Positions 18,358 to 20,770 of a stretch of DNA of 32,000 bases are shown here, one piece after another. Position numbers and translations under genes: made by a program. The first letter of the stretch is position 1, and the number at the start of each line of letters is the position of its first letter. The stretch is from positions 539,789 to 571,788 of the forward strand of contig JAMWCX010000001.1 of assembly GCA_023818895.1 (NCBI GenBank), written 5' to 3'. The stretch comes from Candidatus Omnitrophota bacterium (GTDB lineage: Bacteria > Omnitrophota > Gorgyraeia > 2-01-FULL-45-10). Under the pieces are notes generated by a model, which was given only the letters and a program-made list of their open reading frames with translations, was not told where the DNA came from and made no database searches.

Positions 18358-19391
18358 ACAGACCTCGTAGCTATGGCACCGGGATGATTGTGCTTCTGTT
18401 CTCCCCAATTGGCCGGATTGAGCGGATCCGTAGGATACGCCTCGACACCGCAACCTGTTTCAAGCCACCTTACAAAACGACCTTTCAGCAAACAACTCTG
18501 TCTTATCATTGAAAAAGCCTTTTTCATAGCTGCCATCGAAAATGTTTTTCCGGACGGTTCATAGCCATATTCGGTAAGCCATTCTCCTAATATGAGTTCC
18601 GCGAGAAAAAGCTCTTCATTCAGGATAACCCTCTTCCATCTGTAAGATGCTTTCTCCGAGATACCTTTCAGAGGGTCACTAAACATTGTATCGAATTTCC
18701 ACCTGTCACCTTTCCTATCCTGGAAATGCGACGTATCGAGCATGGCGGCATCGTATGGCACCTCCAAGAACCCAGCTAGTTTACGCAGGCTATCCTCCGT
18801 ATCTGAGACTAAGTCCTCATACCTGATTAGGAAAAACCTATCGGCCGGGAGGGTCTTTTTGAATTCCGATCCCTTCTGAAGAGCATCAAGGCTTGCAAAT
18901 ACCGAATCCAGATAATCCGGCCAGGGTGCATTGGTCAGCTTTTTAAAAGAGCACAGCACATCTCTCGGATCGCGTACTATTATTATGGCCTTTCCCAGCG
19001 GAAACATCCTGAGAAAAAACGGGATCTTTCCCCATGCAACGTTGGTCTTCTCCCCCCAAGCCACCGCGCCAGGTTTATTCCGCAGAAGAAACTGATCCAT
19101 TATAGCATCATACACCTGTGCGTAAGACACCTCTCCCGCCCCACTAACGCGTTTCATAACAGCCTCTTTATCGAACGTAAGGCCAAAACGCTTGCTTATC
19201 CTAGTGTAGACCTCCTCTACAAGGTTTGCCGCATTTCGCTTATCAAGCGGATCAAATCTTCCATATGAGAATCTCATAAACTGAATGCTGTCATAGGTAA
19301 CAGCGAGCATCGGATGAGCATTCAGTATTCTCGACAGAAGCGTAGACCCTGAACGGTATATCCCAGTAATAAAGATAGGTCCTTTTCTCAT
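18354..19391 (-). CDS. PAPS-dependent sulfotransferase
   Basis: The track ORF extends to 19436. I prefer ATG 19391 (MRKGPIFITG...), which has GGAGG 4 nt upstream and a TAATG overlap with the upstream stop. The 5'-PSB motif is TGIYRSGSTLLSRIL and the 3'-PB motif is AIIIVRDPRDVLCSFKK. Confidence 0.8.
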   Translation of the reverse strand: MRKGPIFITGIYRSGSTLLSRILNAHPMLAVTYDSIQFMRFSYGRFDPLDKRNAANLVEEVYTRISKRFGLTFDKEAVMKRVSGAGEVSYAQVYDAIMDQFLLRNKPGAVAWGEKTNVAWGKIPFFLRMFPLGKAIIIVRDPRDVLCSFKKLTNAPWPDYLDSVFASLDALQKGSEFKKTLPADRFFLIRYEDLVSDTEDSLRKLAGFLEVPYDAAMLDTSHFQDRKGDRWKFDTMFSDPLKGISEKASYRWKRVILNEELFLAELILGEWLTEYGYEPSGKTFSMAAMKKAFSMIRQSCLLKGRFVRWLETGCGVEAYPTDPLNPANWGEQKHNHPGAIATRSV

Positions 19392-20770
19392 TATACCTCC
19401 AACCAATCGGATAAGTTGTGTTCCCTGGTCCGCCATTCAGCGGGCCGTGCTAAATTACACACTACCACTACGACATTGCCGACGGCGTCATTCGTTGCTA
19501 CGCCTATATGTGACACCATATCCAGCATAAAAGACTCCGAATCGAACACATATGACCAGTCCCTATCGGAGTTTATTATCAGATTGTCATGATAATAATT
19601 TCCTTCTTTTGTGCGTATGGCTAGGAAAGGTTGGGGCCCCCAGATGGCGATATCGCTGTCAATACGCAACAAGTTCTTATCTAGCCGGCAACGGATTTTA
19701 GGCGGGGACATTTTTTTCATACCTAGGTAGGCCCGGAAAGCTTCCACGGCATTCGACCAGTAAAATTTGATTGAAGGGTGTTTCCTAGATATCTTCCTTA
19801 CCATGTCTATAAACTTTGAGGTCTCTGCAACCATATCTCTGAAGTCATGATTGGTCACAGCGACAAGCGAATTCTGCCCGTTTTCGGCCGCCAGGAACGC
19901 CTTTTCCAGTTCCTCCGGTGTTATCGTACTATGCCGACAATTCAGGTTGAGACAACGCGCTATGTATCTTTTCATCTCTCCGGGCTTACGACAATCCCTC
20001 AAAGAAGGGTGGTACGCTATCCAGTCCGTGGGCGCACCGCGCCAATCGGCGAAACGCCCCGGAACTCTTCCGAGTCGTTCGAGCATTTCAAGGCCTGGAT
20101 TATGCTCCATGTTGAGGTTTCCGAAATCGAATGGTATCCACTGCTCCAGCCAAACACTGGCATCCATGTGCTCAGTTACCGTAGGCCTGTGCGCTGCGGG
20201 AAACCACATATAGTCTATTATGCGTCTTGCAATGATTTCATTGTGCAGATTCGAAAAGCTGTAATTGGAACCGGTGCGATGAGCATCCCCCGAAAAGCTG
20301 CGCGGATGATAGTGCCAGTATATCCTGTCGCGCACGTTCGGATGTCTATCCAACAGGTCCCTGTACTCCCGGTATATCGCGTGGATACCAAGTGTCCTGC
20401 GACGCGGGTTGTTCTTGAAGTTAACATGGTCTATACAAAACCAGCTGAAGCAATAATCTCTATCTTTAGAATCTGGGAATTGAAGACGAAATTCAGCCGA
20501 GAATAATGTCTCGTGCATCCTGTATATCTTGTCCCATGTATCGTTGTAAATCAGGAGGTCCTTTTTAACGAATTCGTTGACCGCCTTTTCGGTTTCGCTC
20601 AATAAGGCGCCTCCATGCTGAATGCGCCTCACGATATCATTAGCCGTAATCTTATCTATACTGAGCGCTTCGACGAGTCGCTGAAGGGTGGCATCGCTGT
20701 CCTCATACAGAGGTCCTTCTGTATCCACACAGTGCACTATGTAAACATCGCCTTTTTCGCCTTTTTTCAT
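19391..20770 (-). CDS. Orphan 459-aa protein; possibly a metal-dependent deacetylase/hydrolase-fold enzyme
   Basis: Intact ORF between the two sulfotransferases. Potential ligand motifs are VYIVHCVDTEGP (D16, E18), WHYHP and VTNHDFRD. No confident family assignment is possible by eye. Confidence 0.25.
   Translation of the reverse strand: MKKGEKGDVYIVHCVDTEGPLYEDSDATLQRLVEALSIDKITANDIVRRIQHGGALLSETEKAVNEFVKKDLLIYNDTWDKIYRMHETLFSAEFRLQFPDSKDRDYCFSWFCIDHVNFKNNPRRRTLGIHAIYREYRDLLDRHPNVRDRIYWHYHPRSFSGDAHRTGSNYSFSNLHNEIIARRIIDYMWFPAAHRPTVTEHMDASVWLEQWIPFDFGNLNMEHNPGLEMLERLGRVPGRFADWRGAPTDWIAYHPSLRDCRKPGEMKRYIARCLNLNCRHSTITPEELEKAFLAAENGQNSLVAVTNHDFRDMVAETSKFIDMVRKISRKHPSIKFYWSNAVEAFRAYLGMKKMSPPKIRCRLDKNLLRIDSDIAIWGPQPFLAIRTKEGNYYHDNLIINSDRDWSYVFDSESFMLDMVSHIGVATNDAVGNVVVVVCNLARPAEWRTREHNLSDWLEV
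19396..19400 (-). promoter_or_regulatory. Shine-Dalgarno GGAGG for the sulfotransferase start at 19391
   Basis: The coding strand reads GGAGGTATAATG. The TAA stop of the 459-aa ORF overlaps the ATG by 1 nt. Confidence 0.6.

Follow-up and report, generated by a model that had tools for sequence, protein, structure and literature searches.

The target gene and its locus

The stretch of DNA considered here (the window) comprises 32,000 nucleotides from a Candidatus Omnitrophota bacterium (GenBank assembly GCA_023818895.1, contig JAMWCX010000001.1, positions 539,789 to 571,788), and the gene under study, hereafter the target, occupies positions 19391..20770 on its minus strand. The target is an intact, ATG-initiated open reading frame (ORF) encoding a two-domain protein of 459 amino acids. 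It is best described as belonging to a family that is new and widespread, has the CE4-like barrel superfold, has its place in the biosynthesis of nonulosonic acids (NulOs) and includes a sulfotransferase-coupled subfamily, of which the window copy is a member. NulOs decorate flagella, capsules, lipopolysaccharides and S-layers, and their N-substituents govern immune recognition, phage adsorption and motility. As read from its gene content, the window is one long legionaminic-type NulO locus, with all substantial genes closely packed on the minus strand.

The target is flanked by two sulfotransferase genes, both on the minus strand. ST1 (20780..21772, 330 amino acids, Sulfotransfer_3 at 3.8e-21) ends 9 nt upstream of the target, while ST2 (18354..19391, 345 amino acids, Sulfotransfer_3 at 1.7e-29), a sulfotransferase of the type dependent on 3'-phosphoadenosine 5'-phosphosulfate (PAPS), follows it and is translationally coupled to it. 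The two are only distantly related; ST1 has no counterpart in the related loci, and the window is the sole retrieved locus with two sulfotransferases. Both contain a P-loop-like sequence, RSGSTLL in ST2 and RSGTTLL in ST1, which we take to be the 5'-phosphosulfate-binding (5'-PSB) motif by comparison with known PAPS sulfotransferases, and ST2 also harbors RDPRD, presumably the 3'-phosphate-binding (3'-PB) motif on the same grounds.

The coupling junction between the target and ST2, GGAGGtaTAATG (19389..19400, minus strand), was read directly off the sequence and combines a Shine-Dalgarno element with a stop/start overlap. The target ends in ...GAT TGG TTG GAG GTA TAA, with the TAA stop at 19393-19391, and the final A of this stop is also the A of the ATG at 19391 that opens ST2 (TAATG, a 1-nt overlap). 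A GGAGG sequence lies 5 nt upstream of the ST2 ATG, within the 3' end of the target. Because of this overlap and the GGAGG preceding the ATG at 19391, ST2 is best read as the 345-residue product, a length which matches that of its homologues (324-345 amino acids), and a longer ORF starting from the ATG at 19436 is unlikely. The initial annotation had described an intact ORF with a stop overlapping the start of a downstream sulfotransferase, and had placed the latter at 18354-19391; direct reading of the sequence bears out both statements. No transmembrane or signal segment is present in the target sequence, and on this basis the target is therefore a soluble cytoplasmic protein, unlike most CE4 polysaccharide deacetylases.

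The genes upstream of the target begin, in transcription order, with DegT, a methyltransferase, a PglD-like protein, NeuB, a CBS-domain nucleoside triphosphate (NTP) transferase (CBS-NTP-transferase) and Epimerase_2, which together make up the core legionaminic-type pathway (26834..31986, minus strand, assigned with Pfam). These are followed by a formyltransferase (25950..26837) and a PIG-L de-N-acetylase (25294..25953), which overlap by 4 nt (25294..26837 in all, minus strand, Pfam). Next in order are a cytidine monophosphate (CMP)-NulO cytidylyltransferase (CMP-transferase), HisF-like and HisH-like proteins and a WbuX amidotransferase (21801..25287, minus strand; TIGR03573 in NCBIfam at 3.7e-104, and Pfam), assigned to activation and acetamidino tailoring, and then ST1, the target and ST2. 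Downstream of ST2 lie a B12-binding radical S-adenosylmethionine (SAM) protein, a 671-residue protein, a class I/II aminotransferase and DAO, GFO and Ldh_2 oxidoreductases, with a second B12-binding radical SAM protein, a methyltransferase, two cytidylyltransferase-type genes, a putative glycosyltransferase and an ABC exporter located further downstream. The PIG-L and formyltransferase genes would constitute, judging by their family assignments, an independent deacetylate-then-formylate pair within the same operon as the target. In the Leg cluster of Ca. Kuenenia, according to a recent preprint, such a deacetylase and formyltransferase pair yields free-amine and formylated CMP-NulOs at the nucleotide-sugar level (doi 10.64898/2026.04.20.719630).

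Family conservation and predicted fold

Searches of Pfam, NCBIfam and the Protein Data Bank (PDB) with phmmer and with profiles return no match to the target, and a permissive Pfam scan (E<=10) of 40 family members gives scattered noise with no consistent weak match. The description of the protein as an orphan is nevertheless wrong, since over 2,401 homologues are recovered at E<=1e-3, the top one being 63% identical to it; it is unannotated instead, none of these homologues having a Pfam domain and those that are named being called "hypothetical". An exhaustive profile search across 1.84 billion representatives places the family at 1,069 clusters (50% identity) at E<=1e-3, 792 at E<=1e-10 and 288 at E<=1e-30. 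Relatives were found in 333 species-representative genomes, including Acidobacteriota, Thermodesulfobacteriota, Alpha- and Gammaproteobacteria, Verrucomicrobiota, Actinomycetota and Chloroflexota, and also Nitrospinota, Gemmatimonadota, Bacteroidota and a Heimdallarchaeon. The family is therefore large, widespread and previously unannotated. Nothing directly relevant to it was found in the literature searched, and current annotation pipelines leave it blank; an assignment would fill a gap in the genome-based prediction of NulO structure.

Alignment of 192 distinct homologues (34-63% identity) demonstrates 31 positions that are at least 99% conserved. D16, E18, E23, D114, H153, H155, R195, E209, R268 and H308 are present in 192/192 sequences, R272 and D309 reach 99.5% (D309 in 191/192), and H13 is found in 190/192, with G378, Q380 and P381 of the C-terminal domain also conserved at 99% or more. 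Three candidate catalytic motifs had been picked out by eye in the initial annotation; these are located at 20711-20746, 20303-20317 and 19835-19858, and their residues prove essentially invariant, a degree of conservation that is, on this alignment, far beyond chance. The most divergent members and the fusion proteins retain D-x-E-G-P, W-H-Y-H, R-x-G, L-E-x-W-I-P-F-D, R-x-x-R-x-L and T/S-H-D, and D114/H115 are lost in some of them. Two variants depart from the usual architecture: the P0411/P0419 subfamily (about 390-430 amino acids), which retains the catalytic motifs while most of the helical insertion that follows strand 1 is absent, and P0475 (1171 amino acids), in which an incomplete target-like region is accompanied by a CBS domain at the C-terminus.

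An AlphaFold2 (AF2) model of the full-length target, built from a 40-sequence alignment, has a mean predicted local distance difference test (pLDDT) score of 93 and a predicted template-modelling (pTM) score of 0.92. The N-terminal catalytic domain (residues 1-356; 19703..20770, minus strand) is predicted to adopt a distorted (beta/alpha)7-8 barrel of the CE4/GH57/GH38 superfold (AF2 pLDDT 90.5), in which a helical insertion (residues 25-95) follows barrel strand 1. The C-terminal domain (residues 359-459; 19394..19696, minus strand) appears as a beta-sandwich when DSSP is applied to the model, contains an invariant WGPQPF sequence and gives Foldseek matches to immunoglobulin (Ig)-like and fibronectin type III (FnIII)-like folds.

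In the model of the isolated domain, strands 1, 3 and 7 carry the invariant acid and histidine residues at their C-terminal ends, the side that forms the catalytic face in parallel barrels. The strand 1 motif, VYIVHCVDTEGP (20711..20746, minus strand), carries H13, D16 and E18 at the end of strand E8-17 and offers a candidate base and metal ligand. WHYHP (20303..20317, minus strand), at the end of strand 3 (E149-154), supplies H153 and H155 as candidate metal ligands, and VTNHDFRD (19835..19858, minus strand), at the end of strand 7 (E301-308), supplies H308, a candidate general acid, and D309. An NPRRR loop (20396..20410, minus strand) belongs to the invariant arginine set R95, R123, R195, R268 and R272, of which R195 and R272 are positioned at the ends of strands 4 and 6; these arginines are a candidate site for an anionic substrate, either nucleotide or carboxylate. 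That the target is a non-enzymatic scaffold or regulator, or a spurious ORF, is extremely improbable: the 31 conserved positions are mostly Asp, Glu, His and Arg residues at barrel strand ends, and the family spans more than a thousand clusters.

CE4, GH57 and GH38 together form the classical "glycoside hydrolase/deacetylase" seven-stranded barrel superfold. As full-length Foldseek searches are blurred by Ig-like matches to the C-terminal domain, residues 1-356 were re-modelled alone. With this domain the top 11 matches in the PDB all belong to the CE4/NodB superfamily (probability 0.89-1.0, template-modelling (TM) score 0.37-0.52), at 8-10% sequence identity. The best is the PuuE allantoinase 3cl6 (chain A; E 1.5e-4, probability 1.0, TM 0.50), and others include M. 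smegmatis 3rxz (TM 0.51), PA1517 1z7a (TM 0.52), H. pylori HP0310 PgdA 3qbu, B. pseudomallei 3s6o and the insect chitin deacetylases 5z34, 5zns and 5znt. GH57 (9jlq, probability 0.63) and GH38 (0.4-0.6) rank below all CE4 matches, and a search of the viral BFVD library returned uncharacterised proteins only. Kinship with CE4/NodB is therefore supported at the level of the modelled fold.

Membership of CE4 itself is not supported. PF01522 is matched neither by the target nor by any of 40 homologues, even at E<=10. A genuine CE4 alignment was also prepared, starting from the CE4 neighbour of the target homologue at locus L090 (retrieved loci carry L numbers), and hhalign scores the target against it at a probability of 0.4%. 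The TFDD and H-x3-H motifs are likewise absent: the target reads V-D-T-E-G-P and W-H-Y-H-P, compared with TFDDG and HSYSHP for the CE4 proteins that neighbour its homologues in L088 and L090. The early guess of a CE4-related metal-dependent deacetylase thus holds for the superfold, on the strength of the 11 leading Foldseek matches, but not for CE4 membership. The PuuE-like branch of CE4, whose members are the sole high-probability matches, shares with the target the distorted (beta/alpha)7 barrel, an acid after strand 1, a histidine pair following an early strand, an Arg-Pro following a middle strand and a histidine at the last catalytic strand, while the target differs in its 70-residue helical insertion and extra C-terminal beta-sandwich. 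A PuuE-type allantoinase finds no sequence or profile support in the PDB search, and the context of the target is NulO biosynthesis, not purine catabolism. Furthermore, the target is cytoplasmic and sits in a nucleotide-sugar operon, whereas most CE4 polysaccharide deacetylases are extracytoplasmic and act on polymers. GH57 and GH38 share the seven-stranded barrel, and in GH38 a His/Asp metal site likewise follows strand 1, but their Foldseek scores are much weaker, their family hidden Markov models do not match the target, and the context of the target is again biosynthetic and cytoplasmic.

Operon context and sulfotransferase coupling

For comparison, 80 genome and 5 metagenome loci were fetched, including those of two cultured strains, Occallatibacter savannae AB23 (L030) and Roseospirillum parvum 930I (L075), their ORFs called and the proteins clustered; counts over 86 loci include redundant copies, and neighbour counts refer to a non-redundant set of 77 loci. 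Among the 86 loci, NeuB occurs in 67, the CMP-transferase in 64, DegT and the CBS-NTP-transferase in 63 each, a 4,6-dehydratase in 62 and PglD in 59. The gene directly downstream of the target is the CBS-NTP-transferase in 43 of the 77 loci and a sulfotransferase in 11, while directly upstream lie the PglD N-acetyltransferase (32 loci) or NeuB (13 loci). The association of the target family is with legionaminic-type NulO clusters and not with sulfation, and the family is central in most guanosine diphosphate (GDP)-linked legionaminic-type operons of Acidobacteriota, Desulfobacterota, Verrucomicrobiota and other phyla.

Operon context tracks the phylogeny of the family. In the large crown clade the order is CMP-transferase, f8, NeuB, PglD, target, CBS-NTP-transferase, dehydratase and DegT. 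The f8 family (about 300 amino acids; for example L003 5341-6261 and L006 3353-4255) has no Pfam match above threshold, a weak GT2/GT-A similarity and a DSDD motif, and is encoded directly upstream of NeuB; it is present in 43/77 loci and absent from the window. Loci with f8 number 43 and those with Epimerase_2 (LegG/NeuC-type) 11, none having both, and f8 is a candidate non-orthologous replacement for the nucleoside diphosphate (NDP)-sugar hydrolase/2-epimerase step of legionaminic acid synthesis.

Enzymes that modify amino groups recur beside the target. Another clade combines it with f20, a formyltransferase, an AMP-ligase and a carrier-domain AAC(3)-like acyltransferase. Its f20 protein (360-390 amino acids, no Pfam match, conserved "HPRSNY" motif) adjoins the target in that one clade, at L015 8768-9850, L016 11361-12569, L027 11340-12503 and L031 11591-12766. 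A GNAT-like protein (fam39) lies directly upstream of the target in 3 loci. Of the loci, 22 encode AAC(3)-type N-acyltransferases, which in some cases carry a PP-binding domain and lie next to an AMP-ligase, and in others are fused to DUF4910. Fusions of about 705 amino acids, joining AAC(3)/Antibiotic_NAT, DUF4910/DUF2172 (M28-peptidase-like) and a winged helix-turn-helix (wHTH), occur in NulO operons of L018 (15051-17162) and about 15 other Acidobacteriota loci, while elsewhere the two parts are encoded separately. Domain fusions involve the target as well. P0444 carries a formyltransferase-like N-terminus that aligns with the window formyltransferase over the core H-x-S-x-x-P-x-x-R-G (E=1e-6), and at its locus a FemAB-like acyltransferase and DegT follow immediately downstream. 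P0362, P0436 and P0456 are fusions of the target to a methyltransferase, with a weak NodS-like match in P0456. Conventional deacetylases, often encoded beside the target homologue, are of the CE4 type in L088 (1973-2962), L090 (3702-4634), L010 and L013, and of the PIG-L type in L050.

Sulfotransferase coupling is found in the window clade (the window and L006-L010) and three other deep branches (L040/L063, L050/L058/L061 and L068). A sulfotransferase is present in only 12/77 loci (about 15%), and a sulfation-specific role for the target is rejected for this reason. To place the protein at "the heart of the sulfation module" is consequently misleading: about 85% of members have no nearby sulfotransferase and sit in core legionaminic-type NulO operons. 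A role as a 3'-phosphoadenosine 5'-phosphate (PAP) phosphatase, or another PAPS-related role, is rejected on the same ground.

Seen from the side of ST2, the relationship is much tighter. The homologues of ST2 make up a tight group of some 85 clusters, reaching down to roughly 33% identity, after which there is a sharp drop. Five of them, chosen independently of the target at 44% down to 33% identity, were used for a reciprocal test, and a target homologue was found 0-1 genes upstream in 5/5 (tblastn, 35-40% identity, E 1e-67 to 1e-94); at the locus of an out-group sulfotransferase (28% identity) none was found. With a target homologue beside every sampled ST2 and a sulfotransferase in a minority of target loci, the dependence therefore seems to run one way: ST2-type enzymes appear to depend on the target family, and the target not on the sulfotransferase. 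Most simply, the substrate of ST2 would be what the target produces, or a close derivative. The coupling to a sulfotransferase noted at the outset is hence conserved, both as direct downstream linkage and in the reciprocal sample, and because this gene coupling is real and evolutionarily conserved, some hand-off from target to sulfotransferase is likely. The obligate pairing of one sulfotransferase subfamily with the target, in at least 17 loci of many phyla, predicts that NulOs are sulfated and gives a hint of sialic-like sugars bearing sulfate.

Proposed activity and alternatives

The preferred reading is that the target removes N-acyl groups in a metal-dependent manner, as a de-N-acylase of a nucleotide-linked NulO or of its hexose precursor, and that its family is dedicated to legionaminic/pseudaminic-type NulO pathways; this reading as a whole is tentative and is given a rough probability of 0.45. 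Deacetylase activity as such is plausible and has indirect support. In the proposed mechanism, an Asp/Glu residue and two histidines would hold a divalent metal and a water molecule, with a carboxylate serving as base and H308 as acid, while the arginines would grip anionic groups of the substrate. The enzyme would thereby strip an N-linked acetyl or formyl group from its substrate, either a di-N-acyl sugar linked to a nucleotide or a CMP-NulO, and the freed amine would be re-derivatised by a locus-specific partner. In most genomes this partner would be an AAC(3)-like, GNAT or formyl transferase, or the amine would stay free; in the window subfamily the product would pass to the translationally coupled ST2, which would sulfate the freed amine or a hydroxyl.

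Chemistry at an amino-sugar nitrogen is suggested because the nearest fold relatives are amidohydrolases, because N-acyl, N-formyl and GNAT transferases adjoin the target, and because the target is itself fused to formyltransferase and methyltransferase domains. In addition, other recognisable deacetylases occur in just 8/93 target-containing loci, and the invariant arginines would suit a substrate bearing a nucleotide phosphate or a carboxylate. Deacetylation followed by re-derivatisation is exemplified by NodB/NodS/NodA in Nod factor synthesis and by the ArnA formyltransferase and ArnD deformylase. The arrangement resembles the logic of the Nod, Arn and Kuenenia systems, in which a CE4-fold or PIG-L amidase is placed beside, or fused to, formyl-, methyl- or acyl-transferases for the same nitrogen, although the putative amidase here would come from a different, uncharacterised family.

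Several observations weigh against a de-N-acylase. The likeness to CE4 is confined to the fold (8-10% identity, TM about 0.5, hhalign 0.4%), with D-x-E and H-x-H standing where CE4 enzymes have the canonical D-D and H-x3-H, and the same superfold includes glycosidases (GH57, GH38) as well as PuuE, a metal-independent ring-opening amidase. The window already encodes a PIG-L deacetylase, so the target may not be "the" deacetylase there, and no recognisable amine-modifying partner is present in 38/77 loci. Formyltransferases can use the amine generated by DegT directly, which leaves their association with the target indecisive, and the CBS-NTP-transferase as the most conserved neighbour (43/77) could indicate an early or core role in the pathway. 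Furthermore, additional CE4 or PIG-L genes are enriched in sulfotransferase-coupled loci (the window, L010, L013, L050, L088 and L090), where either both nitrogens are remodelled or the target does something else.

Another proposal is that the target is no amidase but a different hydrolase or isomerase of the same superfold with a role in the core pathway, for instance an NDP-sugar hydrolase/2-epimerase replacing LegG/NeuC, or a GH57/GH38-like glycosidase or a phosphohydrolase working with the adjacent CBS-NTP-transferase. Crown-clade operons do lack Epimerase_2, a gene found in only 11/77 loci, the target overlaps or abuts the NTP-transferase in 43/77, and GH57 and GH38 are among the Foldseek matches (probability 0.4-0.63). 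We nevertheless regard these options as quite improbable, given that the CE4-type matches stand clearly above the GH matches and that the invariant residues are identical in every context. Replacement of LegG/NeuC in particular is rejected as unlikely, for the target coexists with Epimerase_2 in 11 loci, the window included, and it is f8, always abutting NeuB, that never occurs together with Epimerase_2 (f8 in 43 loci, Epimerase_2 in 11). Individual loci agree with this: L006 has f8 in the core and the target with its sulfotransferase in the tailoring part, and L067 has Epimerase_2 and the target without f8.

If the target is a de-N-acylase, the coupling to ST2 raises the question of which atom receives the sulfate. 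The initial annotation had drawn a parallel with animal heparan sulfate NDST, which couples N-deacetylation to N-sulfation. In NDST1 the deacetylase domain, a (beta/alpha)7 barrel homologous to Agd3/CE18, uses D319 as base, D320, H389 and H393 as metal site and H529 as acid, and is fused to an N-sulfotransferase (PMC10864358). In both systems a barrel domain of deacetylase type is coupled to a PAPS sulfotransferase, here through translational overlap and co-occurrence, and the target plausibly works like NDST1 by analogy of fold and residue types. It is, however, not a member of the NDST family: NDST1 and Agd3 are absent from its top 50 Foldseek matches and the HSNSD Pfam family is unmatched. 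The target and the sulfotransferase are separate polypeptides, unlike NDST1, and no fusion of the two exists among the 150 best family representatives. The window sulfotransferases are Sulfotransfer_3/TPST-like, not NDST-like, and the substrate would be a nucleotide-linked nine-carbon sugar, not an N-acetylglucosamine (GlcNAc) polymer.

Under an N-sulfation scheme, the target would de-N-acetylate a NulO or its precursor and ST2 would use PAPS to sulfate the exposed amine, so that a sulfamate NulO results; in full, the pair would be a two-gene bacterial and archaeal counterpart of NDST acting on nucleotide-activated NulOs. Both forms of the proposal are unlikely in our estimate. They draw support from the obligate company of ST2-type enzymes with a target homologue (5/5), from the translational coupling and from the deacetylase domain of NDST1, likewise a (beta/alpha)7 barrel and one with a His-His-Asp site (PMC10864358), and are opposed by the sulfotransferases themselves, since among solved structures ST1 and ST2 match only O-sulfotransferases (TPST, CurM/OLS) and NDST is not matched. 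The absence of NDST1 among the leading structural matches of the target counts against them too, as does the methyltransferase that separates target and sulfotransferase in L088 and L089, and the acceptor atom is not readable from sequence. In the literature searched, no report of a sulfated bacterial NulO was found, and therefore either N- or O-sulfation would be new chemistry for NulOs. We know of no N-sulfated (sulfamate) sugar modification outside animal glycosaminoglycans. Sulfate on nitrogen would mean that the NDST logic had been invented independently and that a range of environmental bacteria, together with a Heimdallarchaeon, display legionaminic-type sugars with a sulfamate group on their surfaces; soluble bacterial enzymes for chemo-enzymatic N-sulfation could then also become available.

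The same gene pair can also be explained with the target as an amidohydrolase and with ST2, together with ST1, sulfating the C4/C8 hydroxyl of a NulO or another glycan sugar. ST2 would then recognise the de-N-acylated or re-acylated form of its substrate, the amine itself not being sulfated. Such a scheme fits the nearest solved relatives of both enzymes, the presence of two sulfotransferases beside one target, and the separate PIG-L/formyltransferase pair and WbuX system, which already account for both nitrogens; it leaves unexplained why ST2-type enzymes are never found without the target. We consider it, too, rather doubtful as a specific account, and O-sulfation of a remodelled NulO is equally as compatible with the data as N-sulfation.

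Other genes of the window recur with the target or its partners. The 671-residue protein (14803..16818, minus strand) has no family match and recurs downstream of ST2 homologues, with tblastn hits in L087 (7004-8898, 2.8e-68) and L090 (7102-9123, 2.2e-15), and in both the window and L090 it is followed by the class I/II aminotransferase; it is a possible additional component of the sulfotransferase-associated module. The two B12-binding radical SAM genes of the window lie at 8593-10302 and 16822-18453, and such genes are found near the target in 18/86 loci, which suggests that radical chemistry, C-methylation or another kind, tailors either the NulO or its N-acyl chain. At 3504-5393 a 629-residue protein with weak DUF6716 and polysialyltransferase-like matches is a candidate NulO transferase; it adjoins a GT2-cytidylyltransferase fusion (5394-6746), and the window contains three cytidylyltransferase-type genes altogether.

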